NCBI GenBank assembly: GCA_003568945.1
Contig: BDIP01000017.1
Span: 1 to 46,688, forward strand
DNA from: Kipferlia bialata
Taxonomy: Eukaryota
DNA: 46,688 bases
Reading direction: 5' to 3'
Shown here: piece after piece, positions 6,501 through 45,772 of the stretch
Layout: every line of letters begins with the position of its first letter
Numbering within the stretch: the stretch's first letter is position 1
Made by a program: the position numbers and the translations under genes
Notes under the pieces: generated by a model
The model's input: the letters and a program-made list of their open reading frames with translations, nothing else
The model's database searches: none
Told to the model about the DNA's origin: nothing

Positions 6501-9500
6501 CACCTCAGAATATATATATATATACATATATTGATAATTAATACATATATATATATACCATCACTCAATACCTCATCAATGTATGCCAGCCAGTTCATGA
6601 CCCTGATGGCCCCGAACTGACCCATGTACTCCAGATAGGCAGGGTGCCAGGGCAGGATGTGGTACCTAACGATAAGTACTACATGTATATATATATACTA
6701 AGAATACATATATACTAAGAACTATATGCCTATATATCTACAGGATGAGATACCGTAAGCCTCTCACTCACTCAGGGTAAAGGAGTAAGTGATTCCATGC
6801 GGAAGAAAGCGAAGAAATGAGTTTGGAGTGTGAAAGGAACAAATTGAATAGAATACTAGTAGATACTAAACAGCATATATGAGTCGAACCTGTCCTCATA
6901 CCCCGCCATGACCACCCTGATGTTCCTCAATGGGTCATCGGGGTTGGTGCGGGTAATGGTCAGGAAGAGACCGTTGTCGTCATCCTGGGGGGGTGAGAGC
7001 CTTATAGGTATACACACGCACACAAACACCCACCCACATATGCATATATAGATCCTCCTGGGGACTGAGAGGGGGTAATGGGGGTACACATATATACACT
7101 ACATACAGGCATGTGTATATATATTTACACCTCCGATGCTGTGTACTGTATGGCCACCACCCCTGCCCTGTATGACAGGAGTGATGCATCCTCTCTCTAT
7201 ATATACATGTATTCATATAGGTATAGACATATATATATACACTCTATATATATAAACTATCATCTATGTCCTTACCTCTGATGCACTATACTGTATTGTA
7301 ACCACCCCTGCCCTGTATGAGAGGAGTGATGCATCCATGCCCACAGTCAGGGTGCCATCGCCATCGTACAGGATGGTGTACTGGCCTAGGCATGAGATAG
7401 AGATTGGTAGTACCTATACCAATCTTACAGTTATCAAGGGGATGGTGAACAGGCCTGGAGAGACGGATTATGAAGAGAGAGAGATTAATGTACTCATAAC
7501 AAGTACAATACATATGATCTACAAGCACACCGTCTTCAAAGGCCATGTGTGTGTCCCTCAGCATCAGCGTGCTGACCACAACACCCTCAGGGATGTAGGT
7601 GGGGTGGCCCTGGGGGGTGAGAAAGAAAGAAAGGTAGGTACGTAGTTACACGATACTTCAGTCGCGTAAGAACACAATGTACCCACCATTGTTGGGTGGT
7701 ATGTGACCCTCTCGTCCTCTGTGTCCCACTCATAGGTGGGGGAGAGGACCCACCTGTGGGTGAGAGGGTGTTAAAAGATGTATATATATAGACGGTACAT
7801 CATAGTGTGTGATAGGTGAGGGACAGGACCCACCAGGGGGGGTTAGGTAGGAGGGTATATATAGAACAAATATCCATATGTCAATATATATATATATATA
7901 TATACAATATCCCTCACTTGTTATCCTCCTGTGTCACCCACTGCCTGGCTGTCATGAACAGATCAGAGACAAACTGCCTGGCTGTCATGAACAGGTCGGA
8001 GAAGACAGACTCGGTGGACCAGTCGCTGATGCCTACAATTAGGTACAAGCCCCTGGTGACACATGTGGATATACGTATGTGTAGACACACAGGTCATACC
8101 TGACACGTTCATGCCCAGTCTCCTGATGATACAAGTATATACAAGTGTATACATGATCTAGAGATACTACATACAATATATAAGAGGATGTGTCTAATCG
8201 CATCTACCTGACACGTTCATGCCCAGTCTCCTGTCCCCCATGTTGGGTGCCCACTCACCACCGGCCAGACACCTGGGGGGTTAGGTATACATATACCTAC
8301 ATATTAATATATATATATATATATATATAACAGGTACTATACTATACTGACACCGATGTTGGGTGCCCAATCACCACCGGACAGACACCTGGGGTAATCG
8401 GTTAAACTCTGCAAAGATACAGGCTTACAATACATGTGAAACGATGACCATGTACCCCACCCACCTGTCCCCCCCATACCCTGCCCAGCAGACACATGCC
8501 CCATCTATGCAGTCCCCATAGACACACGAGGCAGAGCAGCCTGGGGTGATGGGGAGATAGTACTGCATACCAAATACAGAGCGGACTGAACACACATGTA
8601 TTACTGTATGTATATTGTGAATGGAGACACATACCTGCAAGACCCGGCCCACTGCACTCTGCCTCTCCCTCACAGTCCCACACACACTCATGCAAAGAGG
8701 CGTCATAGACATAGCCTGTGTCGCACACACATGATGAATTGTCGGCTGAGCACACGCCGTGGCCATTGCACCCACAGTCGATCTGGGGTGAGGATACATG
8801 TAGAGGTGTCAGGAGGACTCATTTACAACAGCGTGTACTAAGGCAAAGAGGGTATTTGCACACTTATGCTCGGTACCTCGCATGTGTCACCGGAGTACCC
8901 CTCATAACACTCACAGACCCCAGGGTCAGTACAGGTACCGTGATAGCCACACCTACCCTCACACACTGTGGGTGAGACACATCAATACATGCAAAATGTA
9001 TACATACTCTAAGCATACACACAGGAAGGGTGAGAATGGGACCAACAGAGAGAGTCACGTCTTCGTTCCTGCACAAACCTTATACCCACCCACATATATA
9101 TATGTATATATACATACGTATACCTGGCTAGTGGTACTTGTCACACTCGTATTCTGTGCCACAAGTACACACACATCTATATATACACAAATATGTATAT
9201 ACACAGCGTCTATATGCATATCTATGTTTCTACCTGGGTAGTAGCACGTGTCCCCCTCGTAGTCTGTGCCACAGGTACAGACCTCATGCACTAGGTACGG
9301 CTCATCTGATCGGGTAGAGAGGGTGATGATGGTATCATGGCACTCACAACAACAGTATACTGTAGTATCTGTATGTATATATGAGTGTGTATGTGTGTGT
9401 ACCTGTGGACGGGCGTGACTGCACACACTCCTCACACGAGTAGCTGCAGTAGTCATACACAATGTTCCTCAGTTCACAGCTTGTCACGCCCTCTGTGACG

Positions 9501-10472
9501 GTAACCGTGTACCCGTAGTCACATGCCACAGTCCCGTCCGTCAGACACTGTCCGTGTGTCACATCACTGTCAGCACAGGTAGGGGTAGGGGGTATGTACC
9601 CACTGTCAGAGAAGTATGTCTCGATGGCAGCCTCTTTGGATGAGACAGAGTGTGTGTCAGAGGCTGGGTGTGAGACATATGCAAATAGAATGGAGTAATA
9701 CAATATACGCATAGGAAAGGTGGTGCATGTCGATGTTAGAGAGAATGCTGTGTGGTTCCAGTACTTCCAAATATATACTATTCATATACAGAATTTGTAG
9801 CCACCTGTGTTCAAGGCCCATGGGAACCCACTTGTACCAAACTGCACTACCAGGTCTAGGTGGTCCTGAAGGAGGGATGTGTAGCTGGAGGTGGGGAATA
9901 CGATCCGTTGTAAGGGAAGAACAGAACCTAATAGTAGAGTATATGTCTATTACAGTACATGTCATGTCTATAGAGATCATATAGTATTGAAGGGTGGTGT
10001 ACCTGGGTGTGAGGGGGGATAGATGATAGGAGCCACTACAACGAAGACATGTAGTAAGTAGAGTGATACCTTAGCAGTACATCCCCCATCCTACTATCCC
10101 TGTGCAGTGTCTGTGCCACATCCTCATCAGTGTCATCGGCCATGGTGAAGGAGACAGCAGACTCATACCTATTGTGAGGGTAATATATATCAGTATCAGT
10201 ATCACCATATATACACGTTTATACATGGTGAAGGAGACAGCAGACTCATACCTTGGGTGAGGGTAATATGTATCAGCATCAGCATCACCATATATATACG
10301 TTTATACATGGTGAAGGAGACAGCAGACTCATAGCTGCAGAGTGAGTGGACAAATGTATGCTTCAGCTTAATCATACTTAGAGAGTGAGGGGGCAAAGTA
10401 ATACACATACCAACACACTTCACATTGAGGATAATAGTGCACACATATACACGTACGATATGAGCCTGGAAC

Positions 10473-10503
<31 letters not shown>

Positions 10504-13500
10504 ATATCCGTACGATATGAGCCTGGGTGTGTGCCCCGTGGCCTGTGCCATCTCATCCAGCAGAGCATCGTGCTTGGCCTGGGGTTAGCCATCTACTGTA
10601 TTCTATATACTAAATACTATATAGGATATACTATATATCTCATCATACCACTCATCTCTATGCTGCCCCCTAGATAGGGGGCTAGGGCCAGTGCATCAGT
10701 GTTCAGCCAGAATACATGGTCAGAGAGGCAGTAGTCACCAATCGTGTAGTCAGCTACGGTGACATCGCCAAACATCTGCAGTGAGAGGGAGGGAGACAAG
10801 AGGTGTCACTAGCTATCAATACCCGCACCCTAATCCTTCCCATACTACATTCACACATATACATATATATATATACATATATATATATGTGTGTGTGTGT
10901 GTGAGCCACACTGACGTCACCAAACATCTGCAGTGCGGGGGGGGGGGAGACAAGAGGTGTCTATATACGCATGCGCAAGTCCCAACCTTGTGATTTACCT
11001 CTAGATATATATATATATCCCTACCTTCTTCCACGGCCACACTGTCACTGCCTGACCCGCTGCCACCCTGACCAGTCTGTCTGTCTGTCTCTCTCTCTCT
11101 CAATATATATATGTGTGTACATATCTATATATATACCTTCCTCCAAGGCCACACAGTGACTGCCTGTCCCGCTGCCACTCTGACCAGTCTGTCTCTGCTG
11201 CCAAACACAGACTCGAAGATGGACCACACCTCAAGGCTGGGAGTAAGTATAATTACAGCGTGATCTCACTGGTTGGTATATGTACACCGGTATCATACCT
11301 TCTCATAGCATACCAGCACAGCCCCATCTGCTGCATGTCGTCTGAGAGCATCCACCCATGCACTGTCTCTATGGCCTCATCATCTATGAGGGGTGTACCG
11401 TCCACCCTGCTACCCTCAGAGGCAGCGTAGATGGCACCGGGGAAGTATCCTGGAGTTAGAGCCTCTGCTACGCGATGTGCATAGCATTACAAGATTTAGA
11501 CCTAAAGCTACGCGATGTGTGATTTACTACACGATACATTACCTGTCCCCCAGACCTCGTTGGACAGTTCAATGTACATAGAGACATCGGGCCTCAGGTT
11601 ATCACGCAGATATGTGGCAAACTGGGTGACATACCTAGGGTGAGAGAGAGTGAGGGGTCAACACCGTGAACAATAAGTGTATCTCCAAGGTGATTATGTC
11701 CAATAAATCAGACTACCCACCAGTCACTCCACTAGTGGTCTACATATACTAACGCTTATGCTTATAGGTTCCTATATATGTACATACTGTATTTACACAT
11801 ACATACTGTTACTACACCCACCCGTCACTCCACTTGTGGCCTATGTTGACCCAGGGGTCGGAGCCTAGGGTGTTGCAGATGGTCACAATCTAAAGGGGTC
11901 AGATATGTCATAGAGTTCATACATACGATACATATATATACATATATATATGATGCAGATGGTCAACATCTAAGGGGAAAGAGTACATGGGTCGGCATAT
12001 ACGCTGTAAAACTTCCTATCTATACCTGCTCCACGGGTATCCCCCCCTCTGTCCATGTGTAGAAGGTGTCTCTCTCTTCTCTCTGTCTCTCTCTCTCTCT
12101 CAATATGTATATGTATATCTATACCCATACCTGTTCCACGGGTATCCCCCCCTCTGTCCATGTGTAGAAGGTGTCCCTGGCCAGCCTTGTCTCCCAGTCA
12201 AGGGGCACTCCATCAGAGTCATAAGGAGTGGCGGCATCAACACCATCTACACCCTTTAGTTAGAGATATACAGGAGAGAGAGAGAGAGAGAGTCATGGGG
12301 GGTGGCATCGTCAACACCATCTGCATTTTGGTATTAGAGTAGAAGACAGCAGAGAGAGGGGTAGAGAGGGATAGTCATTAGAGTGACAGCATTCCCTCCA
12401 TCAAGTCCCTGGGTTGGCTGGGAGGCTAGGTTAAGAATTGGAGGTATTAATGGAGAGACCGTGTATATACTTTGTGACGCATACAAGCATCCCTACCTGC
12501 AGCGGGTCTGTCTCCACATCGTGGTTGGTGACCATCAGATCCATGAACCTGGGGGGGTTAGGAGGCATAGAAAGGGGATAAGAGAGGGCTCTAGCAGCTA
12601 CACTACTACGTCATACTAATCAGGTCCATGAACCTGGGGGGAAGAATAGGAGGGGTAGCATAGATACGTATGGATAATGATAAATCAAAATGTGATTAAC
12701 AATGTACACCATTACCTCCGCACCCTGTATCTACATGTATATATGTGTAATATGTATGTGTGTACAGTGGTGTAAGTGCATACCTCAGCACCCTGTATCT
12801 CCTGAGGTAGTCCAGCCACTGAGTGCTCATGGGCTGGGACACATAGAGACACTCGTCATGCTCACTGGGGTCAGGGAGAGTATGGTCCGGTAGAGTTTCT
12901 TCTATGTATGTATATATAGACATAGTATAGTAGAGATGCTCAAACTATACGCACGTATAAATCCAGACACTATTCTTGCTCCCTGGCATCAGAGGTAGAG
13001 AAAGGGATGATTGGGTGATGGATAGGTAGAGAGTGATATACATATCATCTGTTGTGGACATGGCAGAGACTACACCATACATGAGCAACTCAATGGCTTA
13101 CACACATATATGGGAACGCAGTAGACATATACAGCTACCAAACTAACCACACGCGTACAAAAATTCACACAGGGTTACCTGACCACCACAATGTCTCTGA
13201 TTGGATCCTCCGGGTCTGTTCTGTTGATGGATATGTGCAGTCCATTGTTGTAGTCGGTGGAGCAGGTCAGCTCAATCACTATCCTGCAGAGTGAGTGGCG
13301 GATTCATATATATATATATGCATGTAAATACAGTCACACCTATATCCATCTACATGTATATATCCCCCTTACCTTCCTGGCCTAGCCTCCACAGGTGCAT
13401 CGAAGTTGAAGTACACTTATACGTACATACTACATACTGTATATATATATGTATTATATATATACATCCCCCACCTTCCCGGTCTGGCTTCTACAGGTGC

Positions 13501-16500
13501 AGCATCAAAGTTGAAGTCCAGCACCCCCTGTCCCGAGTACAGTACCACATATCTACCATCTGGCACTGAGTGGCACTCAATGTCCCTGGTCAATAGGGTG
13601 TGGGCACACCTAGCGTCAGACTATGATGTATAGATATATATATGTGTGTGTGGGTATATATATATAGGCATATATATACTATGTGAGTAGTTCTCACTAG
13701 CACGATCTAACATGCACTCATCCCCTACCTATTTAGACACACACATAAAATATCATGTATATATACAACGTCGACCCCCCTACCTATTGACATGGGTGTA
13801 CAGCGGGTACCCATCGTCCGAGAGAGTGATCTCCCTATCGTTGGGGTTACCATCGGCGTCTAGACCATCCTCGTCATACCCGTCCAGAGTGTTCCTGAGG
13901 TGAGTATAGTGACATGTTACTCGGTTGTGTGACATGTTACACCACGTACCAGTTGTAGTCTGTGTGCCCGAGTGCCCCATAGAGCCACTGTCTGCTCCTG
14001 GGGTGAGGGTCATAGACATAGCAATAGAGGTGTACTGTACATATATATACTACTCATGACTGCGTTGTCTGCTCCTGAGGGTGAGGGGGTTGGATAGGAG
14101 TCATCATGTATATAGTGCGTCATATACTCTAATTCACAGTTAGTGCAATATGTGTGTATTATGTACAGGTACTATATGTATACACATCCTAGTCATGAGG
14201 TCCTTGTCACACTCTCCCTTTATCAAACTAATACTCCTTCTCTAGATACTGTACATACAATATATCTGAACTATTATATGTGTACCTAGTCATGAGGTCC
14301 CTTGTGACGCTCTCCCTCTGCCAGTCTGACACGCCACTCATGGACACACCCATCGAGGGGGGTCTGGGGGGTGAGGGTGGACAGAGAGAGATATATATAT
14401 AATGATTATATAGATATATATACGTGTGTCCGTATGAACGTACATACACCACCCATGGAGGGGGGTCTGGGGGTGGGGGTAGATGAGTATATACATTCAC
14501 GAATATACTTCGGCATATACGCCATGTAACAGGAAAATGTGAGGCGGACGTAATGATATAATGTATACATATCAGTATAATATTCCATACCTTGTGTCCC
14601 AGTCGCCTCTGTCCATCAGTGTGTCACAGGCATCACCTGAGTACCCGGCATGGCACAGACACAGACCTGGCGGGTGAGTGGTATCATAGACTACCCTAAA
14701 AGAGATACAGAGTGGAAAATCACCTAAGGACCATACCTGTATCCGTATCCACCACAGTGTGTCTCAGATCCAGAATAACAGGGAGGAGATACTAAACATA
14801 TAATACATATGCATATATATTAGTGCTATCCCACCTGTATCCATGTCCACCACCCCATACACACATAGAGTGTCAGATACAGATGGACAGGTAGGGGCAG
14901 TGGTGAAGACTAGAGGGGCACTCTCGGACTGGGGTAAAGGCACAAAGCGCGTGTGTATGAGAGAGAGAGGTAGAGATGCAATGATACAACAACAGTGAAT
15001 ATGAATATATATGTATATATATGTATAGACCTTCATACCTCACTTAGTGGCACACCCCCGTTGGCTGCAAAGTGACTGTATGCCTGGTATCTGGCAGAGG
15101 AGGAGAGGGTCTCCATGCTGTGGTGCTGGGCATCTGAGGTGAGGGACTACTATGCTATATACACGCCTGTTATATATATATATATAGAGAGAGAGAGAGT
15201 GGACAAACAAACGCCATACATAGACACATTCATACACTACTATACTGTGGTACGGGGCATCTGCAGTGAGGGGTCTATCATAGGCCATGAATAGATGTAC
15301 TATACTACAAACATTATGTGTGTGAATAGACCCTAACAACCCACCTATCAGCCCACAGTCCTTGTTGTACCACATGTCCTCCTCACACATGTTGGTGTGC
15401 TTGGTGAGGGCAGGGGCGATCACAGCACGGGAGCCCTGGGGGTTGAGGCATACATACGCACATGTGAATGTGCACGACATAGTGTGAAGTAGTTGACCAA
15501 TACACAGCTACGCATACCTGTGACCGCAGAGTGTTGAGCCAGTCGAGGGTGAGGTCAGTGACAAGCTGGTTACTCGATTCAGTGTCAGATTCACCCATCA
15601 GAATGCGGGTCATTCTACCTACAGGTGAGATAGCTCCCCATATCATTGTTCCATTAAGACATATTTGTGTTAGAAGCCACTTAGACCAGTTATACATACC
15701 CTCCAGTCTGCTCTCCCTCTGTGCGTCCAGTAGCTCATCAGCAGAGGGGTCATCGGACCTGGAGTACCTGAAGGTGAGTATGTGAGTAGGAGACAAACAC
15801 ATACATTCATACACCACATTCATGTTTACTGTCTCCTATACACGTACAGTACTAGTATGTAAGAAACCCCTATACCTGAACCGTGCCCCGTGTGTGGATG
15901 GCCTCAGGTGCATATACACATACAAATACATACATATACACATAAGAGTATGTATATAAACACATGTATATACCTGAACCTAGCCCCGTATGTGGATGGC
16001 CTCAGATGGATACCACCCAGGGTGGGCATGGTACGGAGGCCATAGTCAAGGGCCTGGGGTTGATACAGATACATAACATATACATCTATATACAGGTATA
16101 TACAAGTAGCACTAGGCCATAGTCATGCATCATTACTATTCTTATGACTAAAGAGGAGAGGCCATAGTCAAGGGCCTAGTTGGTAGAGAGATATACATTT
16201 GTCTTTGTATTTCAGAAGGGGTACGCACCACTTGTGCTAGCCCTGTGAAGTATGGGTCGTCTGATATGATGCCCCTGTCCACTGCATAGAGGAGGAGGGC
16301 AGGGTCATCCAGGGAGTCTGGGGGTTAGATGTATATACAAAAAACAATATACAATTTACATTTTCCAATATTCAATATTCAATAATCGATATTATCAAAT
16401 GTATATACATACATACATATATATACCTAGCAGGGCCAGTGTCTCTGAGTCACTGCTGTCATAGCTACCAGTGCCATAGGAGCCAAGGGAGCCTGGGGTC

Positions 16501-18048
16501 AGGAGAGCATGGGTGTCACTTTGGAATAGAGATATATACACCAATATGTCCCATATATGTCCTGTCACCTTTGTATGTGATGTGCTTGATGTATGTATAC
16601 TAAATATATATACTCTACACCAATGCCCACATATATACTCTTTCTATAGCACTAATATAATCAATAGAGGGACAGACACCCTCTCCACCTGTGTATGTGA
16701 TGTGCTTTCCGTAGTTTTACTCTACACCAATACATGTGAATCCTCTACGTTCAATCCATACTATACACATACATGGACACACCTGTGTATGTGATGTGCT
16801 TGACGTATGTATTGGCCAGGGCCAGGAAGGCATCATCCCTGGGGGTGAGGCATACGGTACAGGTAGTGTGAATACTTAGATGCTTGTAGTGAGAGACCAG
16901 TAAGCCCGCACCTATCCTTCATGTCCTGCAGATACAGGTCTAAGTGGTTGTCATACAGTGTGACCATGACCCACTCAGACACACTTGAAGGGGAGGCAGA
17001 GGAGGGGTAGGCGAGGTCCCACAGCTGGAATAGTAAGTACATATAACAGTACATATATATATATATGTATACATGTGTATATGTCATATCCTATACCTGT
17101 GCGGCAGACACGGTCTGTGTCAGGTGGGCACCAACAGCACCCATGTAGGCCTAGAGAGTGAGAAGAGACAGCAATAGATATAGATCTACACTATCGACTG
17201 TCATGACTAACCTTCTCTCCATACTGCAGGTATCTAGGCCGAACGGACCAGTCTCTATGGTGAGAGAGCAGCAATAGTATGTCGAGGTATACATACAGTC
17301 ACTAGTCTAAACCTAAACTGCTCTGCACACAGTGTGAAAGAGTCATCTGATATGGACACATATGTATCAATGAAAGAGTGTATGAACACAAATATACGAG
17401 TAATAATTGAACTCCTCACCATGTGACACAAGAGATAGGGACAAGTACAGACATAAATACGTGTGAAGATTACCTGAACTGCTCTGCGCACTGTGTGACA
17501 TAGCCATCGGTGGCATCGGCAGGCAGGGTGAGGGAGATGGAGAGGCCTGGGGTGGGGGGATGTAAGGAAAAGACTAGAGAGTAGACATGTAGAACACAAT
17601 ATGTTCATGTCATATGTCAACAACTTGGCGTTTCATAAAAGTGCACCTGTCTCCTCCGCCAGTCCCTTGTAGTACAGGTACGGCATGGACTCGTCAGACT
17701 GGGTGGTTAGAGTGTACACATACATGTGTAGAATAGAGTATACTTAGAGTGTCGCTATGTATACAGGTACGGCATGGACTCGTCAGACTGGGGTGACAAG
17801 GATACATATGGGTATATGGATATGAATGGGATTACAAATCTATAGATATGACAAATATATGACAATTCTAAAACTGTTATATTTCATATTATGTGTATAC
17901 CTCATACCCATATACACATAGATAGGTATGGATATGGATATGGATAGAGATACAAGGAAAGAATAGGATACCCACCTTCTAGTACAGCCTCTCTATCTAT
18001 ACCTATCTATACATATATGTACATACAACTCAGTAAATACTATATTAA

Positions 18049-18080
<32 letters not shown>

Positions 18081-20293
18081 GCCCCCACCTTGTAGTACAG
18101 CCTCTCCATTGGTCTGTCCTCCCATGCTCGTGTCTTGTCCCCACTGTTCCACTCATCCTCACTCAGGGTGCTGTCGGACTCCCACTGACATTAGAAGGAT
18201 AGTATATACACAAACCCCCCCACACACACGCATATGTATATATGAAGTGAAGACAAGTACAACATAGGGTGCTGTCGGACTCCACTGGAGTGGGTATGAG
18301 GACTCTTCATTGATGAGGTTAATACCCCGGGAACAGTATTCTTATGCCCATATGGCCAGACACAGCATCCCCCCTACCTCTGGGTGTATTGTGTCGAACG
18401 GCTGCACTGCTGCTATGTACTCTGGTGTGTAGAGGGCATCGGAGGGGAGGCCATCAGATTCAGGTACACACTTGGGGTGAGAATAGGGGTGTAGGGAGAG
18501 AGAGAGAGAGAGAGAGAGGCCATCGGACTCGGGTGCACACTAAGAGTGAAAATAGGGATGGAAAGAGAGAAGAACGGAGAAAGACAGACAGAGAGAGAGA
18601 GAAGGGTATGAGACTGAGTCACAGCCCATGGGGGAATGTGGTGAAGAGAGAGGGAGATTACGACTACGTAGTGGGAGAGAGACATGCTCCACCTGCAGAG
18701 AGTGCAGTGAGAGAGAGTATAAGGGTGTAGGATGAGAGAGAGAGAAAGATGTCATACCTTGAGGGAGTGCACTGGGTCTGACACGTCTGAGTGGGATATC
18801 AGGATGAGGGCATGGCTGGGGTCACAAAGAGAGAGAGAGAGAGAGAGAGAGGGAATATGAGGGTAGAGCTGGTTAGATATATAGATAGTCCAGTATATAT
18901 GTATATATATATACTGGGAGTATGGTACCTGTATGGCGTCTCTCTGTACGAGTACGAGGTGAATACATGGTCACCAATGGGCACAGGTATTACATCCAGT
19001 CTGATATGGTAGACCCCATCAGACTCAGAGACTAGCTCGACAGGTCCCCGGAAGTCAAGAGACCCTGTCCCACTGAATGTGCACACATACTCTGAGTAGG
19101 GGAGGGTGTTGGAGACTGCGACTGGGCCTCCATAGAGATAACCTTGAGTTATACAATAATACATAGATACAGAAAGAGAGAAAGAGGTATTGGAGAATCC
19201 GAGTCTCCATAGAAACACCCTAGAGAAAGAGCCTCTATTTCAGAGACAGAGAGAGAGAGAAAGCACATGTGGAGGAGAGGGGTAGTGGAAGAGAGAGAGA
19301 GAGAGAGAGAGAGAGGTATGTCGCACCCTCTGCCATTGCCGTTGGGTAGTGTGTGTATGCATCTGCGGCACACTCAGTCTCATCAGGGTGGTAGTCCACA
19401 TACACATTCTGGGGTGAGGGGGGACGTAGTGTTAGAATATATAGCATACAACATAATAATAAGACACTCCACTGTATCTATGTCTGGGCCCACATACACA
19501 CACACACACATTCTGGGGTTAAATGGGGGGGGGCATAGTGATAGTATACATGTCGATACAGATTGATGACACTCTAGACTGAGTGGGATCTGCGTGCAGT
19601 CCAAGGATATTATAGTTGGTAGGCACCCACCTGTCTTCCGTATGTGTCTGTATCACCCTCACTGGTGCTGTACTTGTACCAGGCAGTGGTCTCTAGGTGC
19701 AGAAGCAGATTCCTGAGGGGTGAGAGACCGTGGACAGAAAGACAGGGAGAGAGGGAAGGGATAGAGAAGTCAGTAGGAGAAAGAAAGAAAGGGGGGGGAG
19801 CAGATATTGTTTATGCTGACACACATAAGAATAGGGACTAGAGAGTGAGAGGGGAAGCGAGGTAGGTAGGGTATACAGGATTGGGGGGGGTTAGTAGGTG
19901 GGATAGTACTCTCTCACCTGAACACCCAGTCTGTGCCCCACATGTCTGGCTTGGCCACAGGTACACCGACCTAGGGGGTGAGGGGGGGGGGGGAGATGTG
20001 TGGGAACCTACAGGTAGATACTGATAGTCATGCTGTGTGTCACTGGATTAGACACTCTTCCTAAACAGACCTCCCTCGAGAGAATACAGTCAATACATAC
20101 AAAGACACCGCACAGTATCACAAAAGACAGGTCTGATAAGACAAAGAGAGAGAGAGAGAGAGAGAGAGAGGAGTAGTACCTCAGTCCGCGGCTCACAGGC
20201 ATCCCCCCTGAAGAATGCATTGGAGGGGATGTCATCACACACAGAGGCACCCAGACACAGGGATACAAGACACACTGACACAAGGATACGCAT
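549..20293 (-). CDS. giant multi-exon type-I membrane protein: signal peptide, 3x clan GH-A-like (bacterial 'cellulose-binding protein'-type) glycosidase domains, EGF-like spacers, stalk, TM, Pro-rich tail
   Basis: Exon 1 (20293-20180) encodes MRILVSVCLVSLCLGASVC (signal peptide; alternative ATG at 20299). Dozens of GT-AG exons splice into recurring motifs (GMNVSGISDWSTE, GQYTILYDGDG, TNPDDPLRNIRVV, RFMD/RVMNW, YIELSNEVW/YLEGVGNENW, YEGG). The terminal exon 3364-549 holds the TM (LLLVAGAAILGVLVCIGGVYLY) and PPPPP tail. A few internal exon boundaries remain unresolved. Confidence 0.8.
3280..8271 (-). other. GH-A-like domain copy 3 (acid/base NE and nucleophile YEGG retained)
   Basis: Spliced peptides RLGMNVSGISDWSTE, GLFLTITRTNPDDPLRNIRVV, WHPAYLEYMGQFGAIRVMNWL, DLWLTLPYASDDTYI, VYLEGVGNENWNG (exon 5858-5909), LATYEGGP (~3957-3975) and YGCWGLVEY. 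Confidence 0.78.
8460..9580 (-). other. tandem EGF-like/Cys-rich modules
   Basis: Exons encode GQCLTDGTVACDYGY, CTCGTDYEGDTC, CVCDTGYVYDASLHECV and CVYGDCIDGACVCWAGYGGDRC. Confidence 0.75.
9640..14365 (-). other. GH-A-like domain copy 2 (acid/base NE and nucleophile-position Glu retained)
   Basis: Spliced peptides MGVSMSGVSDWQRE, GRYVVLYSGQGVLDF, NRTDPEDPIRDIVV, VLRFMDLMVTN, DPWVNIGH, MYIELSNEVWG (exon 11543-11634), DALALAPY and RLISYESA. Confidence 0.75.
14628..15135 (-). other. Cys-rich/EGF-like linker between GH-like copies 1 and 2
   Basis: Exons encode PTCPSVSDTLCVYGVVD and CLCHAGYSGDACD (EGF C-x-C-x2-GY-x-G-x2-C). Confidence 0.65.
15360..19970 (-). other. GH-A-like domain copy 1 (degenerate; catalytic Glu motifs replaced)
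   Basis: Spliced peptides GVPVAKPDMWGTDWVFR, YVCTFSGTGSLDF, ISHSDVSDPVHSLK, SLTLPADATDGYVTQCAEQFR, AYMGAVGAHL and RTMPTLGG occur in the same order as in copies 2 and 3. Confidence 0.6.
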
Positions 20294-20299
20294 GCTCAT

Positions 20300-20463
20300 C
20301 CTATTGGGCGACACGAATGTCACCCAGGGTTGGAAGGGAGGAAGAGGGCAGATGATCAGACCCTGACTGGTTGATAGCATGAAACGTTCAGACGTTCTCT
20401 ATACTCAGAGACTCTGCTTCTCTAGTCTTCACACCGATCGTGAAGAAGGTCCACGTTATCAAT
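20300..20463. promoter_or_regulatory. compact divergent (putatively bidirectional) promoter region
   Basis: About 165 bp separate two signal-peptide-encoding start codons on opposite strands (20293/20299 minus; 20464 plus). No specific motif identified. Confidence 0.5.
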
Positions 20464-25164: not shown

Positions 25165-25220
<56 letters not shown>

Positions 25221-35141: not shown

Positions 35142-35189
<48 letters not shown>

Positions 35190-35869: not shown

Positions 35870-38800
35870 TCATACCAATGACTGGGAGGACTCGTCAGAG
35901 GAGGCCGATGAGGAGTCTCCCAGAGCACCTTGTTCTGTGTCATCCACAGACTCATCCAACTGGGGCCCCTCTGCTTGATGCTCAGGGATACCGACCGGCA
36001 CCACCAACACTGGCAGTGCACAGCACTCCTCCACAGAGGGATCCACAGGCATCACGCGGAAGGGCATTCCACCATCGACCTGGATCGTGTTCCCTCCCTT
36101 CCAGAGGCTAGGGTTCCCGCCTTCATACAGGGTCATTGGTGTCATTCCAACGGGCGTTGAAGGCCTGGAAGCAATGTCCTCGCTGTTCTCTTCCTCATCA
36201 GCTCTGCACCCTACACAACAGCAGGCACAGACACATAGCAAGAAGAGGAGGCCCAGACCAATCTGGACCGGTACTGCCCAGGAGGTCTCCAGGCTGTAAC
36301 TCACTGCATACCCATACCCAGTTGGGGGCAGGTCTGAACCGGTGTAGTCGATCACAAGGCAGTTACGCAGCACTGGCAGCAGAGTGTAGAAGCGGCTGCT
36401 GCTTAACTCTCCCCCTCTGACCACCACGGGACTATCCCCAAGGGATAGCAGAGAGTGGTCCTCACCACACTTACTGGGCGTGACGGTGAGTGTGTCTGTG
36501 GTAGCAATGGTCCCAAACATCTCCAAGAACATGTCACCCACGCCGCTGCCTAGCACTACGCCGTCTGGGTGTACAATCATGCGCTGGCGCCTAGCGTGAG
36601 AATGACATGATGGAAATTTCTGAGGGTATTCTTAGGTGCGTACGTGTTGGGAGTATACACACTAGGTGTAAAGAAGCCAGCGTCTTCGGTCAGCACGGCC
36701 CCGTCGGTTACAGCCTCTGGCCCGCTATCGGCAGCGGCTGGCGTCACTGAGTACTCACAGGACCAACCGGCGAAGTCGGTGTGCTCACTGTCAGTATCGA
36801 ACTCGACTACTAGGCAGTTCTGCAACCACTCTTCACCGGTGTGGGTGAATGAAATGCCCTGACGTTAGCAGCCTAATACTATTTCAAGTGAATATAGTGG
36901 CTCAGTTGAGGTGGCATACCTGGTTGATGTTTATGCTGCCACTCTTTGTTGTGATGGGAGTGGAAGACAGGATAGTGTGGGAGGGGCCGCAGTGGGCACG
37001 GTGTATCTGACGGTCAAGGGCAGAGAGTGGAGTATCAGTATCGGTATCTAGTATGCGTGTCTGGCATATACAGATACTGGGTCAACGGCATAGCTCAGTA
37101 TCACTGGGGCTCGGGATAATAGAGGGTGTGTGTACCTTCAGATAGTCACGCCCTGACTCTGTGTATCCTGTGCATTCAAGGTGCACGCTGTCCATACTGC
37201 CAGGGTGCACTACAAACATGTCATCCCTGAGGTGGGTATTGGTACTCAATCGATGTGGAAAAGGGATGATACTGATACTGATGCAAAGCTATCAGGACTC
37301 CCCACGTACTGGTCGTTTCTGTATGAGACTGGCGCAAATGAGCCAAAGTCAGCAGTGTACACCTCGGTGGAGTCGGGAACGGCTACCACCGCCTCATAGG
37401 AGCATGTAAATGTATCCCCCTTTGTCAAAGAGTAACTCTCCGCGTTGTGACTGGTCGTCTCATACGTCACAACAAGGCAGTTTTCGTCTCCGGCAAAATA
37501 CATGTCATGGGGTGAGGCTGGTTTCTGCAGGTCCAAGAACACTCACAAATGCAGCTTATGACACAGAGAGACAAAAGTACACAAACTGAAAGCCAGTGGC
37601 GTAAATCCACTACTGATGGTAACAGAGGCTCTATCCACAGAGAGTGGGTATACACTTCGACAAGCATAGACCATACACGTACTGAGTAGATGTCATATTG
37701 GTTGGCTGGGTTGCGGTGCCTGTGCTCCCTCAACCCCGATGGAGAGTGGGCGTCATCGCACGTGGCGTAGAAGGTCTGATGAGTAAGCATCAACATAGAA
37801 CATTGAATGAACATTTGGGTAGAAGAGGTCGAACCGATGATAAACAATATATATGTCCACTCTGTAGAAACCACTGATTACTAGGTGCTGATAATTATGT
37901 ATACAAGCTCACTCCTACCTTCAGATCCGCATAAGAGTCACTGTATTTATAGTAACTCAAGTCCATGGAGCAATCTAGGGTGATCTGTGACAGGTAAGCA
38001 GGGTGTACAACGAACACATCGTACCTGACCTGTCAGTATTTGAAGGATGATGCGATGAAACGATTTGTGATTGTGAAGAACAGGCCTCAAAAGGGTATAC
38101 ACGGACTGATTATGTTCACCAATGAGATATATATATATACTATATGTGTATGATATATATACACTGATATGCACGTACTCCTCAGGGTGGCAGGACTCGA
38201 TAGAGAATTGGCCCGTCACGTCTGTATAGTCCTCTGTTCTGTTTGGAGGCATGTCTTGGATTGTGTAGGTGGCTGAGAACCCTGGCCCGTGTGACCCCGT
38301 GTCATCAGTGTCCCAGCGGATCGACACACAGGTGTCATAGCCCTCAAAGGAGATGTCCTGGAGTTAGCATGGAAGGAGGTCTGTGGACAATACTGCTCTC
38401 GGGTGAAGAGACTAACTGTAACATATTGGTCCATACCAAGGGATCAGAGGCCCCGGGCATGTCTCCACTCAACACTAGGAGGGGCTCAGCACTGTCCCGG
38501 TCTACATATCCTGGCTGACTACCCGATGGCTCACACTCGGCCATCCAGACCTGGGTTTGAGATATGGATCTATCACCAGTGCAAGTATCAGTTACAGAGT
38601 GTTTTAGTACCCCATACCGACACTGTGTTCCCCTCGGCTACAGACCCAGTGAACTCTATCCTGCCACTCTCTGCCCAGGCTGGGTATATGTAGAAGCGAT
38701 CATGCCTGGCGGTTGATGATCGGTGCAGAAAGAGTACATCACTTTAATGAATGGGGAATGACGTACTGGTTGATGTGGTAGGTCGCTGGAGCTATTGTGC

Positions 38801-41800
38801 CGGTCTGTTCCGTGTACCACTCTCTCACATCGGATTGGGCCGTGTAGGAACATGAGAACTCCTCATACGCTGCATAGTTATTAGAATAGAGCTGCCTTGT
38901 GGAGTACCGTACAAAGAAGCAGTTCCTGTTATTGTGCGAGTCTGCATTGAACGACATGTCCTGTGTCAGTGTGTGCAATTGGTGCAGACATATACTAACA
39001 GACACGGCAAAGAGCACTAAAGTAGAACTTAGCAAAGAAATTGTCAGTGCCAAAAAAGCGGATCAGCGTGTCTGACTTACCAGGGTGAAGTCAGTATCCT
39101 CGAGATCAGCTTGGTCATAGATGTCGTCATACCAGAGAGGCTCCTCCACCACTCCAGAAGCATCACAGACGGCATAGTAGACCTGGGTGGGTGAGTGGGG
39201 ATGACTGTTTCCACATTGCAGTCTGGGTGGGCGCTACCCAGGCAAGAGGGCAAGACAATCGCCAAAATACCAACATGTAACACTGCGCTGCTCTTGGCCT
39301 ATGACTTGTAGTAGAGACATGTGACACCCACCCTCAGGGAGTCCCAGCCGCCAGGGTCGGCAGAAGAGCCCGTGCAGGACACTGTCGCCAGACCCATGTC
39401 AGGCCCGGGATACACGATGAACCGGTTGTTCCTGGGGTGAGAGGTACTCTAGGAGATGGGGTGTGTACAGACAAGCATGAGAAGCAGATAGCGCGCACAT
39501 GTTCTCGTGGTAGTGTTCCGCAGTGAAGGCGAAGGTCCCCTCCCAGTCGCCGAGGAGGGTCTCCTCGTTCTTCTCCCACGCAGTATAGGAGCAGGAGAAC
39601 CCTGGGTAGTCGGCTGAGGAGGCGCTGGTCTCGTACTTGACCATGAAACAGTTCGCCCCATCATCAGGGTCTACACGTTCGTGCCCAATACTCACATAAC
39701 TGGAGAATCTCAAATCCTGGTGTAAGTCTATGGCGTGGTGCACCCCTATAGTGATATACTATATAGACAATACAGACTATATAGACTATATAAACTGTAG
39801 AGAGAGAGGGCATGTTAAGTGTGTGTCGTGCATATATGTGCGTGCCCTGTAGTAGTCGATGGTCCCCGATGTACCCTGGTCTGCATCCCAGAAGGGTCCG
39901 TACTCGTAGTACTGGTGGTGGTCTGAGTCGCAGTAGGCCTGGCTCACCTGGGAGTGGGCGCAAATGGGATAGAGACAGATGCACGTGGATACATGTACAT
40001 GTCACATAATGGTAAGTAATAACACGATACCAGTTATGTTTAAATAAATACCTATATAGAGGAACATTAAACCCAACTGCTGTATGTGTTGTTGTAACTT
40101 ACACTGATTTTGTCAGAGGGTGCAACCTCGCCGGTGCATGTCAGTCGGGCTGCCCCCATTGTATCTCTGTGCACAACATACTTGAGGTACCTGGGTGGTG
40201 AGAAGGAACAGAGAGAGAGAGAGCATGGGATGCCAGCAGTGTGGTCTCATGAATCAATGCCGACGAGGGAGACGTGGTGGATGTTCGTGCCATCCGAATG
40301 AGGGGGGGGGGAGAGAGAGAGAGAGAGGCAGAGAGAGAGACGTACTGGTTGTCTGCATAGGAGGCAGGGGAGAATGTGCCAGAGAGCCCAGTCAGCACCT
40401 GGGGTGGTCAATGAGGGGATACGGGGGGAGATACTCATACTTGACAGGACGTGCCACCAGAGAGAGAGAGAGAGGGAGGTGAGAGGAGGAACAGAGAGCC
40501 ATACTGCATACCTCAGTGTTCTCCCACTGAGTGGCTGTGTAGGAGCATGTGAACTCTGTGGAGGCGTGGTACTCGGTGTTGTACTGGACCACCACACACT
40601 GAGGGGCGTTGTAGTCATACTTGCTCTGGAAGGATAGATCCTGAGGTGACATAGAGAGAGGGGGGGAAGAGATAGAGATGCTTCTGGAAGACATAGTCCT
40701 GATATAAGGTAGAGACAGTAGCAGTACGTTCACAGATGAAGAGGTATTCATATGTCGAGGAGAGGAAGAGAGAGGGGATTGCAAGATAGAGAGAGAATTC
40801 AATGTCCCAAGTTGAGATGGACCTAGTATCACCCACTATATCTAAACTTCCTGATTGAATCTATATCTTCAACAACAAAGCGTCAACACGACTATATTAA
40901 GCACAGTACCTCTGAGATATCAATTGTGCCGCTCTGAGAGTCTACCTCATTCAAGGACCGGTATGTAGTGCCGTCATAGCGTGTATTACAATAGGCCGAC
41001 ACCACCTGGGTAAGAGAGAGAGCGAGAGACATACACACTGATAGATAATGAGTGACTACAATAGTATCAGTGTTAGCTAACACATGCACACTACAGTGTC
41101 CACACAGCATAACCAAATAGGCTTGGCATCAGGGGATGTATATATATGGTGTATACACACACACATATATATATGAATTGCTACTGATTATTAATATAAT
41201 ATATGTATCGGCACCTTCACTGCGTCTAGGGCGTCTGTTGTGCCAGCGCATGTGAGAGAGAGAGTCTTCATCTCAGCTGGGAATATCATGAGAGAGTCCG
41301 TCCTAGGTGTGAGGGGTGAGGGGGTGAGGGAGTGGGTTCGAATATCGACACAGGCACAGCGAGTGTCAGAGAGTAGGGTAGAGAGTAGTGCTTCGGTCAC
41401 ATGGGGGATAGGGGTCGCTGACATATAGAAAAATATCAGAAGACAAGGGGAAAGGAAGAGATAGAAGGGTTGAACGAGACAGAGAGAGAAAGACGTACTG
41501 ATAGTCGTGGAAGTCGATGCTGGAGAAGGATCCCGAGAAGGAGGTGTGGCACTGGAGTTTAGTGTGGAGAGAGAGAGAGGGGAAATGGTAGTGGGACACA
41601 GGGTATGGACAACGCATTAGTGTTTGGGGGGGGGTAGGAGAGGGAGGGGGCGGATCAGAAACAGCATGAGAGTGGGAGTGTGATACCTCTCTCTCGTCTG
41701 GGATCCCCCCCCTGGTGGTATACACGCATGTGATGGGGGTGGGGTCTGTGGGGCAGTGGCCAGCCTCCGACCCAGTGTCGTAACTGACGACAAAGCAGTT

Positions 41801-41893: not shown

Positions 41894-41919
41894 GGGGGGG
41901 GGGGGGGGGGGGGGGGGGG
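41894..41919. repeat. internal poly-G run (26 G), possible assembly junction
   Basis: Homopolymer followed by tttttgtttttaaaaagg; the CUB-like gene ends here without a start exon. Confidence 0.8.
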
Positions 41920-41957
41920 TTTTTTGTTTTTAAAAAGGCGATCTCTTCACACCTCTC

Positions 41958-43531
41958 ATGTCTATGTATGAGTGTCAGTGGGAGTGGGAGTGTCGGTCTC
42001 TCTCATCATTGTCTCTATCCATACCTCCAGACGTACTTTGACTCTATCACTTTGTACTAACCCCAGGTGACATCCTTTGCAGTGGGGTGTCTGTTCCTGC
42101 TGTACCTAGGCCACAGACACTTCTTCGGGGCAGGCACAGCTAGGTATCTATATACCATGAACATCCCTATATATATATATATACTATATACAGTATACTC
42201 ATTCCATGTATACTCATTTCTTGTATTCCATCCATCTGTCATCCACCCTGCACCCACCATTGTATATATATATACGTATACTTCCACCCACCATGTGCCT
42301 TTATTAATAAGTATATATATGTATATATGTATACACTGATTTATCCACCCTGCACGATTGTGTCTACCACTCAGATTCAGACATAGTAATGAGGTGTTCT
42401 GTGTATATGTATTGCCCATTGTGTCTCACCTGTACTTATATGTAGTCAGACACAGTGATGAGGTATATATATATATGTGTGTCTCTCACCCCTAGGGGCA
42501 AGCGCATTGGGTCCAACGACCAATGTTATATTTATATATTACTTATAGAATTTATATATTATATATACTATATTATATAGTCCCTTGTGCCTCACCCCTA
42601 GGGGCAAGCGCATTGGGTCCATCGATCTGTTTCTTGCCTTCTATACACTATATATATATATGCTCATATGTGTATACACTGACACCAGGGGCAAGCGCAT
42701 TGGGTCCATCGACCTATTCATAACTCTTTGTCAGTATATATATAGGCCATTAGGACACTGACACCAGGGGCAAGCGCATTGGGTCCATCGATCTGTTTGT
42801 GGCTGTGTCTGTGTGTCTAGACCTAGTCATGCTGTACGGGTGGGTGTGCCCGAGGTGGATAGACACAGACACGCAGTGTATGGTGCGTGGCATAGTGTGA
42901 ATGTATATACATATTGTATATATTAATATATATATATATATGCTGTACGGGTGGGTGTGCCCGAGGTGGATAGACACAGACACGCAGTGCATGGTGCGTG
43001 GCTGTTTATACTATATATTCACATATTGTATATTTATATATTTGCAGTCAACAGATACTCAGTGCATGGTGTATCGCTGACTATAATATATGAGGGAGTA
43101 TGTGTACACTGGTATGACTTTTGCTGACATAGAATGTAGAACTGCCCTCTCACACCATACCCCTATACCACAAGTACCCACACCCCAATCCCCCTTCTGT
43201 GTGGCCTCTCTCGTGTCTCTCCCTCTCTTGCACCCCTGGTCTCATTTGTATATACCAGACTATGTGGGAGGTATCAGTATGGATATCAGTGTCAATATCA
43301 GTATCAATACTGACCCCCAGGTCTCCTTTGCATATAGTATATATATGTACTGGACTATGTGGGAGGTATCAGTTAGGTATTAATTATGTATAAGATACTG
43401 ATACTGACCCCCAGGTCTCCTTTGTGCTTGACTATGTGGGTGGGGTGGCAGCAGAGGTGGTCATGGTGTGCTTTGCACACCACGCTTGCCTGTCTCTCCA
43501 GGTACCAGTACTGATGTACTCTCCCTCCGTC

Positions 43532-43574
<43 letters not shown>

Positions 43575-43885
43575 TGTATGTTGTCTATCAGTACCATATA
43601 TGTTTGCTTTGGGAGTGGGTATTTTCATTTAGAGGTCACTCCTCCCCTACTCACCCCCAGTTCAGACTTCGCATTGACTACCCCTCTCTGCTCAAGAAGT
43701 ACACGGTTGTATGTGTCATGGTGAGTCTGTGTACCATATGTATATATATTCAACCCTAGACATAGTTATATATTAGCGAAAACTCTATTCTGCTGAAGAA
43801 GTACACCGTGGTATGTGTGATGGTTCGCACACATGTATCTCTCTCCCCAACCCCCCCCCCATACCCCTGATGTGCTTAACATGTC

Positions 43886-43921
<36 letters not shown>

Positions 43922-45772
43922 ACCCCAGGTCCCTGCCACCCTGACTGTCATAGTGACACTGGGGGACATGGTCAACACAGGTGGGTGGAGATACATATAT
44001 ATATATATATATAGGTATATATAGGTAGTTGTATGTGCTATAGTCACATTGGGGGACATGGTCAATACGGGTGGGGGGATATATATATATATATTGGAAA
44101 ATATTTGCTATATGGGAAGGCATTGCTGTACTGAGGAACATGCTATGGTCAACACAGGTTGGCATCAGTGGTATCTACCATAAGGACATATAGATATACA
44201 TATGTATAGACCCCTGCCCTCACCCCAGACATATCCGATGCCACCCTCGACCCGTGCTGGTTTGCAGAGGACGCCAGACACCACGGTGGGTATAGTAACG
44301 ATATACACACACATACACACATATATATATATGTGTGTGTATAGGCATAGTAGAATTATTGTTGTATTGGATGTTTGCAGAGGATATGTGTGGCTTCCCT
44401 GGTGTGTCCTCTCACCAACATCTTGATACGGTTCGATTGTATAGTATTGTATAGTGTAATATAGTATTGGATATGTGACACTGCCACTTACCCCAGCCCT
44501 GATATGGTTTGAGGGTCCCATGGTGACCATGATACTCATCACGCTGGTCTATCTGGTGGCAGGGTTCAGGTAGATATCGTGTATATATACATAGGTATAC
44601 TAGGAACTGTCGTAGAGTGGTCTATCTGGTGGCCGGGTTCAGGTAGACCTGTACACTGATACTGATTCTGATATGTGTATAATAGGCTTAGTAGTGGATA
44701 TGGTGACTATTCTAACAATATAGTGATGGTTCACAGTCTAGATATATTGGTATATTCCTGGCGGGTGGGTTCAAGTATGGGTTTGTCGTATATAGTATCG
44801 TATCTCGATATTCCTGTGATTGACATGCCGTCACCCCATAGTATCCTGGGAATGTATATATATGTATATATTGTATATATACATTCTCTCTCTCATGCCT
44901 AGGATCCTGAGGCGTGAGCTGGGTCAGGCCCCTAGTCAGAGGGCCCTCCTTCACCAGTTTGCAGTGCTCTCATTCCCAATCCCCATACTCAGGTATTGGT
45001 TATGCAGAGAAACTACTATATACATTCTACATACTGTCCATAACCATAATACATACTATATATGGGTATATATGTACCTACCCAATCCCCATACTCAGGG
45101 AGTGAGGGTCATACACATACACTTCTACTATTATATATGTGTATATATACAGATTCCCAATCCCCATACTTAGGTAGGGATTGTTGATGCAGTGAAACTC
45201 TTCTGTTTGTCCCTCCATACCCCTCTGACCCCAGGGCCGTCCCCACCGTGTGCAATGCTGTGTTTGATGTACTCACAGTCAAGGGCCTCCCGTACTCAAG
45301 GTATGGAATTTAATCACTACTCTGTCAGCACCTACCCCCTCCAGTAACTATGTGTGTTCTATATATTAGTAGTTACCCCTCCCCCCCCCCCTCTCCCCCC
45401 AGCACCTACCCCCTGTTTGTGGCCTCTGCCACCCCTGCCCTCTGTACTGTCATGGCATATGCCGCACCCAGGGCATACCTGGCCATGAGGGACAGGAGGC
45501 ACAGGAGGAGGCCAGGTAATAGTATACGTGTTAATTATACTGATACTGATACCAGGTGTGGTCAAGATACAGTATATATGTATCAGTTGACTATATATGT
45601 ATCCTATATGTTATGGTCAAGATACAGTATATATGTATCAGTTGACTATATATGTATCCTATATGTTATACTGATACCGATACTGATACTAATACTGATA
45701 CCAGGTGTGGTCAAGATGCACCCCATGCACGACAGACATGACAGAGGGTCCCCTGCACACAGCGAGGTGTGA
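41958..45772 (+). CDS. 7TM GPCR-like protein, ~310 aa (cAMP-receptor/GCR1/class-B-like topology)
   Basis: 12 exons join in phase with GT-AG: 41958-42032, 42067-42143, 42768-42882, 43415-43501, 43661-43720, 43929-43980, 44229-44285, 44497-44569, 44903-44992, 45235-45300, 45403-45515, 45705-45772. There are seven hydrophobic segments, a Cys at the top of TM3 (DTQCM), CWF in ECL2 and a basic C-tail. Confidence 0.72.

Follow-up and report, generated by a model that had tools for sequence, protein, structure and literature searches.

Why do introns of Kipferlia bialata contain partial copies of the exon ends beside them, and why do some of these copies differ from the real exons mainly at synonymous sites? 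The question comes from a 46,688-nt stretch of its genome (contig BDIP01000017.1; the window hereafter), in which an earlier note described five copy/exon pairs. The published assembly holds 124,912 introns (PMC5874029), and the answer bears on two matters: whether this abundance of introns is ancestral or the product of ongoing rebuilding, and by what means a reduced spliceosome passes over the decoy splice signals present in ~40% of introns. If the copies come from another allele, they are a trace of genetic exchange in free-living K. bialata. To our knowledge, sex has never been seen in Kipferlia's group.

Exon-end copies in four genes

The survey covers four genes of the window; genes at 26–35 kb were left uncounted because their frames are uncertain. 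Gene 1 (560..20322, reverse strand, as are all its features below; deposited model KIPB_000157) has ~63 exons, is represented by a spliced RNA contig, and encodes a protein in which a bacterial-like domain occurs twice, together with EGF repeats and one transmembrane segment. Its frames are those of a 63-exon model without stops that matches KIPB_000157 in 2715 of 2861 alignment columns. Splice sites 12253 and 11822 were picked to restore frame and length (KIPB_000157 has both) and 10649 was derived from RNA, so model-to-RNA fits at these sites are not independent. Gene 2 (41958..45770, forward strand, as are its features) likely encodes a membrane protein, its frame being taken solely from an open 12-exon model. 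Gene 3 (24885..25878, forward strand) has five exons and encodes a small secreted protein, and gene 4 (38618..41551, reverse strand, 12 exons modelled) served as an internal control.

Codon-blind alignment of introns to their neighbouring exons found copies in 38 of 87 introns, 56 in all. Copies occur in 30 of the 61 introns of gene 1 and 7 of the 11 in gene 2 (20 synonymous to 4 nonsynonymous differences), and in 0 of 11 in gene 4 at threshold. A score of at least 26 was reached by 44 of 174 adjacent exon/intron comparisons; the expectation set by non-adjacent exons is ~3, and a reverse-complement control gave 6 of 174. Nearly all matches (49 of 56) end no more than 2 nt from a splice junction.

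All five pairs of the earlier note were recovered where it had placed them, and a codon-by-codon recount returned the differences it had claimed: 23 synonymous codons, 3 replacements and 1 codon deletion. In gene 1, the donor-side copy at 7131..7191 (61 nt, followed by GT) shows four synonymous changes plus T>A and S>T relative to the real exon at 7276..7385, which the RNA contig piece 7275–7384 matches with no other letters; the intron behind this copy is unrelated to the exon's own (flank p 0.75). The 58-nt donor-side copy at 11025..11082 has five synonymous changes and R>K relative to exon 11137..11236 (RNA contig piece 11143–11238, again no other letters). This exon had been thought to lack an internal GT that would permit canonical swapping with the copy; it has 11 (11236–11137), none of which lines up in register with an AG of the copy. 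At 13373..13415, a donor-side copy carries six synonymous changes and a gap of one codon (3 nt), and its intron flank is weakly homologous to that of the real exon (p 0.04); the exon, 13475..13609, is placed by agreement with the deposited model and by RNA lengths. The remaining pairs lie in gene 2, where both exons come from the open 12-exon model. The donor-side copy at 43789..43822 differs from exon 43661..43720 by four synonymous and no nonsynonymous changes and has an unrelated intron flank (p 0.80); that at 44040..44070 has four synonymous changes relative to exon 43929..43980, of whose end a second, 13-nt copy lies at 44145–44157.

The survey added further copies. At 15876..15914 lies a donor-side copy, absent from the first list, in which one synonymous change falls at a first codon position (Arg AGG/CGG), and an acceptor-side copy at 18516..18539 has three synonymous changes and V>A. 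The donor-side copy at 8100..8125 is identical to its exon over 26 nt, with an unrelated intron behind its GT. A counter-example is the decayed copy at 9124..9172 (2.5 synonymous to 6.5 nonsynonymous, with a stop). Acceptor-side copies also occur in series: at 4180..4541 (three scored, start of exon 4075), where the branch motif departs from the real one at its degenerate base only, at 42496..42718 (three, start of exon 42768) and at 25642–25742 in gene 3 (three, forward strand).

Synonymous excess against neutral decay

The earlier note had expected ~40% synonymous differences from neutral decay, which our simulations bear out (0.36–0.41); its five pairs stood at 85%. The latter figure was inflated by picking. 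In the codon-blind set we counted 88 synonymous and 75 nonsynonymous differences, or 0.54 of 163 over 56 copies, a share reached by 0 of 100 neutral runs in each of six settings. Fourteen additional short copies gave 14 to 22 (0.39), bringing the share for all 70 copies to 0.51. Thus the comparison without picking that the note had called for, run on this window, exceeds the neutral value. A silent excess exists, smaller than 85%, and it is weak without the five first pairs (edge-trimmed share 0.50; binomial p 0.04–0.29; LRT 4.6).

Ordinary tandem duplicates under neutral decay, with the pattern due to picking and chance or to a silent rate that is higher in exons than it is in introns, would account for the drop from 0.85 to 0.51–0.54 once picking is removed, for the 0.39 of the short copies and for the weak signal outside the five pairs. 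We consider this account rather unlikely. No neutral simulation attained a share as high as the observed one, even when the five most synonymous copies are dropped from both data and simulation (0.48 vs 0.335, maximum 0.459 in 150 runs), and copies with at least three synonymous and at most one nonsynonymous difference number 8 against 1.4 expected (simulation maximum 5). Four-fold sites show 20 transitions to 29 transversions and thus no strong transition bias; simulations with transition bias (kappa up to 4) or A/T bias did not produce the excess. Young neutral duplicates should also keep their intron flank, which 20 of 24 donor-side copies do not.

A model in which copies are already diverged at birth outperforms the neutral model (LRT 12–24) and has a modest advantage over a single uniform ratio (lnL −118.3 vs −121.4). 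Heterogeneity between copies is borderline (p 0.07 in the main set, 0.003 with the extra copies). The replacements look unselected, with a mean BLOSUM62 score of −0.80 vs −0.77 expected and 5 stops in 71; they tend towards A/T on the copy's side (12:25), which silent changes do not (28:25).

These values bear on a suggestion of the earlier note that each copy serves its own exon as a donor in gene conversion and is hence kept coding-compatible. Direct repeats ~100 nt apart would suit this idea, given that the organism depends on homologous repair (PMC8516963). We would nonetheless expect a conversion rate relevant to selection to erase silent differences and to give an equilibrium pN/pS of at least 0.5 (0.5–1), against an observed 0.21–0.29 with unselected replacements. 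On this reasoning the suggestion fails and is very improbable.

Transcripts

RNA evidence came from a run taken as RNA of the same sample and spliced, as its joints indicate. The earlier note had proposed a search for copy-specific codons in spliced RNA. The major RNA contig of gene 1 carries the exon letters, its joints use the exon's own donor, and copies are absent from this one spliced contig, from which rare forms would drop out. The two copies tested (7131..7191 and 11025..11082) are covered by no RNA contig, and the bin 10907–11047 has no RNA depth. Of 13 intervals, 11 have the RNA length that the copy-free model predicts, and in the other two the misfit does not stem from inclusion of a copy. 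Two automatic gene models had inserted copies as micro-exons to meet RNA lengths; hand curation led to their removal, since a model free of copies yields these lengths and the deposited model agrees.

Could the copies be used, now or recently, in minor transcripts, through alternative or non-canonical splicing or as remnants of mutually exclusive exons, and so be under protein selection? The silent excess and the splice dinucleotides kept in 40 of 49 copies would be explained. The RNA contig also lacks 33 nt at 7935–7967, a segment without GT-AG ends, which leaves room for unusual splicing, and a published search found no snRNA candidates in K. bialata (PMC6679479). Against such use stand the RNA lengths, the two uncovered copies, and the unselected replacements and stops. 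An in-register GT/AG swap point exists in 1 of 49 copies (8 of 49 if GC is allowed), and the strict branch motif is found in 10 of 25 copies vs 49 of 76 real acceptors. We judge selection through minor transcripts improbable, and the unconventional splicing entertained in the earlier note finds no support in the RNA contig. Mutually exclusive exons in the usual sense were rejected, the copies being 13–61 nt long and anchored at one junction rather than whole exons with both signals.

Assembly and the search for a second allele

The earlier note had also considered a mosaic of haplotypes in the assembly. Two haplotypes written in tandem would not be out of keeping with a window that has at least one fault (83 nt of RNA missing at 10579–10649). 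Copy and exon share a single DNA contig in two of the five pairs: contig 5453–7874 spans the copy at 7131..7191 with its exon, and contig 12146–15160 that at 13373..13415. Both contigs are unbranched, of ordinary depth (468 and 459) and without differences to the window, although the run may be the window's own source. An artefact is thus unlikely for these two pairs, and as a general explanation we consider it highly improbable.

A single other letter is listed over 19.5 kb of DNA contigs from this same run, possibly the window's own source. No second gene-1 protein was found among candidates of 1051–3000 aa, where the protein search returned only the gene itself, and the nearest domain relative in protein searches is 31% identical. 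Only two RNA contigs lie on 7100–11300 at 80% likeness. A homeolog or paralog as donor is disfavoured, with no second diverged gene copy among the protein candidates or among RNA contigs on 7100–11300. Metagenome scans with two long exons gave 44 and 26 pattern matches, none related. No second allele, strain or relative emerged from these scans, from the protein searches or from a run search, which returned two runs of one sample. The main text of PMC5874029 does not mention duplication, heterozygosity or ploidy.

Anatomy of the copies

The copies are 13–61 nt long (median 25 nt), are anchored at one splice junction and repeat with a period of ~100 nt, each adding ~99 nt to its intron; 25 of the 38 copy-bearing introns have a single copy. 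GT is kept in 22 of 24 donor-side copies. Flank homology to the real exon's intron is seen in 4 of these 24, whereas simulated same-strand duplicates keep it in 96 of 96 cases at decay 0.05 and in 85 of 96 at 0.12. Acceptor-side copies have homologous flanks in 10 of 25 cases, as ordinary tandem duplicates would. Spacers show no local homology to the downstream intron in 20 of 21 comparisons, and dinucleotide runs at the junctions are modestly in excess (23 of 49 vs 28% background). A cDNA template was discarded, as donor-side copies run into GT and intron and not into the next exon. A mobile-intron origin of the spacers was likewise set aside: an all-against-all comparison of 130 intron segments revealed no family, the best unrelated pair scoring 42.

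Much of this anatomy would also follow if the copies were old same-chromosome duplicates, with the exon-like part refreshed by conversion from another allele's exon or the real exon swapped later by recombination. Conversion would end where homology ends, at GT or AG, which explains why homology stops at the junction with unrelated sequence alongside, why even identical copies can have unrelated flanks, and also the acceptor-side flank homology and the ~100 nt period. Such a route requires frequent conversion of 13–30-nt targets, which are short for homologous recombination. We would moreover expect conversion without a diverged allele to give a pN/pS of at least 0.5, so the same polymorphism is needed. 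We regard this route as unlikely, if worth keeping in view.

A proposed origin by break repair

The reading we favour, to which we give somewhat less than an even chance on the letters of the window, is that break repair copied an exon end and intron from a diverged allele and that the copy then decayed. A break within an intron would be repaired off the homologous chromosome, with one broken end invading the other allele through exon homology, using that allele as template for the intron and a little of the exon after it, and then being released. The released end would be joined to the other broken end without homology, in the manner of polymerase theta. The product would consist of the own exon end with the cut own intron, followed by the other allele's exon end with its intron. 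Exon and copy would have diverged as alleles while both were under protein selection, with ~0.10 extra silent differences per site (range 0.04–0.15), and after birth the copy would decay neutrally by ~0.035 per site. The spliceosome would skip the copy because it has one splice signal only.

A diverged allele as template, already an option in the earlier note, fits best, but only as an allele outside this clone, and none was found. Copying from an allele also presupposes, as we assume, that introns of alleles diverge much further than silent sites do, including next to copies identical to their exon such as 8100..8125. The repair genes reported for K. bialata are compatible with such events: it has Dmc1, Spo11, Hap2 and PolQ and is listed without Ku70, and fornicates are described as lacking Rad51A (PMC8516963). 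Dmc1-type residues aid recombination between diverged sequences (PMC6719624).

More tentatively still, and with rather more doubt than confidence, we suggest that the introns may be an archive of other alleles. Homolog repair that is Dmc1-only and Ku-less would routinely insert exon and intron pieces of the partner; a clonal assembly would thus record a silent diversity of ~0.1 and prove genetic exchange in a free-living metamonad, with the rebuilding of introns between alleles outpacing change at silent sites. Should copy and exon represent two alleles, the assembly would contain thousands of allele pairs, and diversity, recombination and intron turnover could be estimated without new isolates.

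Comparison with known systems

One-sided invasion, in which homologous repair is ended by end joining, is reportedly known from experimental breaks (Belmaaza and Chartrand, 1994). It resembles the Kipferlia copies in having one homologous and one non-homologous junction and a short duplication beside the break, and the anatomy of the copies, as far as it can be read from the window, fits its predicted product. It differs in setting: in Kipferlia it would be a routine event, templated by a diverged allele and affecting ~40% of introns. A literature search over titles and abstract openings found no report of such exon-end copies.

In human F7, a splice-junction minisatellite in intron 7 leaves splicing to the first donor, with silent pseudo-donors downstream (PMC1557585), and the pseudo-sites likewise stay silent in the major RNA contig of gene 1. 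Units of the F7 array stand head to tail, are nearly identical and take in intron sequence (PMC1557585); Kipferlia introns, in contrast, mostly hold one copy, on donor or acceptor side, and the intron part is mostly unrelated. Daphnia neointrons are accompanied by direct repeats, and different alleles may have non-homologous introns at a single site (PMC4202315), so that there, too, alleles can hold unrelated introns at the same position and break repair is invoked. The Daphnia repeats are short marks of staggered breaks, and the available part of that paper describes no exon-end copies with silent excess (PMC4202315). In Schizophyllum commune, silent diversity is 0.13–0.20 with low replacement diversity (PMC4576712), and crossovers favour exons (PMC4209137). 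Its hyperpolymorphism was measured among isolates, whereas the value for Kipferlia (0.10) would be read from one clonal genome.

In the Rogers model of intron gain by tandem genomic duplication, the new intron takes its two ends from an AGGT that has been duplicated (PMC3443670). Short intragenic duplications containing splice signals are common to both systems; in Kipferlia, unlike in that model, the intron pre-exists and the copy's signal is unused, in line with the single in-register GT/AG. The 33-nt repeat at 7935–8000 alone may be a Rogers-type gain.

As a separate observation on that repeat, its only near-canonical register by sequence reading is GC-AG, and the listed RNA joint fits other ends.

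Synonymous excess in a codon-blind count

Each intron was aligned to both flanking exons with codons ignored; every count given here refers to this window only, namely to the 87 introns of four modelled genes, with the genes at 26-35 kb left out. Gene 1 (560..20322, minus strand; a two-part model of 63 exons), gene 2 (41958..45770; 12 exons), gene 3 (24885..25878; 5 exons) and gene 4 (38618..41551; 12 exons) were all modelled without internal stops. The window's proteins have 100% matches in the K. bialata models KIPB_000158 and KIPB_000157. In 2715 of 2861 columns the gene 1 model and the deposited protein agree, the disagreement lying in the ends and one gap.

The alignments yielded 56 copies, that is, partial duplicates of a neighbouring exon's end, in 38 of 87 introns, with about 3 false matches expected in 174 comparisons. 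The copies carry 88 synonymous and 75 nonsynonymous differences (synonymous share 0.54, pN/pS 0.26). Simulated neutral copies passed through the same pipeline gave shares of 0.36-0.41, and 0 of 100 runs reached 0.54 in each of six settings. The silent excess in the window is real. Its size, however, is far below the 85% of the five pairs in the earlier note, which are otherwise as described there (23 synonymous codons, three replacements and one codon gap).

The share was 0.60 after edge trimming (49 copies) and 0.62 with one copy per intron side (39 copies). Counting against the excess are the trimmed set without those five pairs (0.50; p 0.04-0.29; LRT 4.6) and 14 short copies added by an anchored search (0.39); all 70 copies together give 0.51 (p 0.00002-0.002). 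When the top five synonymous copies were dropped from data and simulation alike, the shares were 0.48 and 0.335, respectively, with a maximum of 0.459 in 150 runs. Eight copies combine at least three silent with at most one replacement difference, versus 1.4 expected. Copy density varies among genes, since gene 4, which encodes a repeat protein and has GC-richer introns, shows no copy at threshold in any of its 11 introns.

The replacements look unselected: their mean BLOSUM62 score is -0.80 (-0.77 for random changes), and 5 among 71 are stops. Counts for an A/T lean in the copy are 12:25 for replacements and 28:25, no lean, for silent differences. A model of neutral age plus divergence at birth gave an age of 0.035 and a birth divergence of 0.10 (0.04-0.15) per silent site, and its fit was 3 log units above that of a uniform ratio with equal parameter number; exponential, constant and two-class forms fit indistinguishably. 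For heterogeneity between copies, p is 0.07 in the main set, falling to 0.003 once the extras are included.

DNA and RNA evidence on the copies

In gene 1, copies are present in DNA. Single contigs from a DNA run (5453-7874 and 12146-15160) cover two of the five pairs (7131-7190/7276-7335 and 13373-13412/13475-13517) with 0 differences and at unique-sequence depth, although this run is possibly the window's own source; across 19.5 kb one other letter is listed. The 11025-11081/11137-11193 pair is unbridged by any listed piece. For that pair, the statement that the exon (11236-11137) has no internal GT was incorrect: it has 11, none in register with the copy's AG.

The major RNA of gene 1 leaves the copies unused. 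One spliced contig of 8470 nt, from a run of the same sample taken as RNA from its spliced joints, covers gene 1 and matches exons 7276-7385 and 11137-11236 with 0 differences. The bins containing the 7131 and 11025 copies show no RNA depth; since rare isoforms are lost from contigs, the copies may still see minor use. A model without copies gives the same offsets in 11 of 13 intervals; the RNA guided the placing of three of its splice sites. In the remaining two intervals, the RNA contains 83 nt that the window lacks, and the window contains 33 nt that the RNA lacks. The 83 nt fall at 10579-10649, where the DNA joint steps back 103 nt; this is likely a collapsed repeat hiding an exon, and because of this fault the deposited model omits exon 10775-10649. 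At 12236-12253 (minus strand), a 9-nt in-frame repeat with one silent difference lies at an exon start, and both units are required to meet the RNA length.

Anatomy and origin of the copies

The anatomy of the junctions is new relative to the earlier note. Copies end at the splice junction in 49 of 56 cases, and each lengthens its intron by 99 +/- 8 nt (r 0.81, 76 introns). Their flanks are mostly foreign. Of 24 donor-side copies, 22 retain GT, but in only 4 of 24 do the 30 nt that follow resemble the intron of the real exon, and no local homology between spacer and downstream intron was found in 20 of 21. Among simulated same-chromosome duplicates at 0.05 substitutions per lineage, 96 of 96 had detectable flank homology, and at 0.12 the figure was 85 of 96. 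On the acceptor side, AG is preserved in 18 of 25 copies and homology of the flank in 10 of 25; a strict branch motif occurs in 10 of 25, versus 49 of 76 real acceptors, and at three loci the motif departs from the real one at its degenerate base alone. The order of divergence seen here, replacement < silent < intron, would be that of two working alleles, whereas a neutral duplicate would give 1:2:2.

We infer that the template of the copies was another allele. A break within an intron would be repaired off the homolog: one broken end would pair through exon homology, copy the donor's intron plus 13-61 nt of adjacent exon, and be joined without homology to the other end. One-sided invasion of this kind is a known repair process. 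According to PMC8516963, K. bialata has Dmc1, Spo11, Hap2 and PolQ and lacks Ku70, and Rad51A is missing in fornicates; Dmc1 tolerates mismatches (PMC6719624). Schizophyllum has silent diversity of the required size (PMC4576712), and its crossovers favour exons (PMC4209137).

Alternatively, old duplicates may have been refreshed or re-paired through recombination with other alleles, a route that requires the same polymorphism as birth from an allele; we regard these two allelic routes, taken jointly, as the probable origin. Conversion between a copy and its own exon should be unable to bring pN/pS below 0.5. The main gap in the allelic reading is that run search, metagenome scans and protein searches found no second allele.

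Among known systems, F7 pseudo-donors lie behind the real donor (PMC1557585) and introns can be gained by tandem duplication (PMC3443670), but the K. bialata copies fail the defining tests of both. Daphnia alleles with non-homologous introns (PMC4202315) are a known relative of the pattern. A literature search found no paper on this combination, and the portions covered of the K. bialata genome paper (PMC5874029) and the metamonad intron paper (PMC6679479) leave it unmentioned. The pattern, based on one window without a second allele, is cheap to test genome-wide and bears on unseen sex in metamonads.

Additional features of the window

The start of exon 43415 has two copies (43239-43271 and 43346-43366) in which GT directly follows a Gly codon, at a point where no intron interrupts the real exon; they possibly derive from an allele with an extra intron. 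The spacers ahead of two donor-side copies (12074-12130 and 11083-11136, minus strand) are alike, their score of 42 being the best among pairs from different introns, and both terminate in a GA run. A 34-nt intron is predicted in gene 2 (42033-42066) and a GC donor in gene 4 (39845). In the gene 1 protein P0002, a domain without Pfam match (residues ~1378-1890) occurs twice; its relatives (24-33% identity) are mostly unnamed, one being a bacterial hypothetical protein.

An in-frame 33-nt tandem repeat lies within an exon at 7918-8032 (minus strand), its units differing by three silent codons and W/F, and here the RNA contig is short by 33 nt. W is kept in the 10 of 20 relatives that align at the motif. 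Judging by the sequence, the sole near-canonical removal would be a 33-nt GC-AG intron with W retained, a possible newborn intron. The listed RNA joint is more compatible with the F version, and this would suggest an assembly fault.
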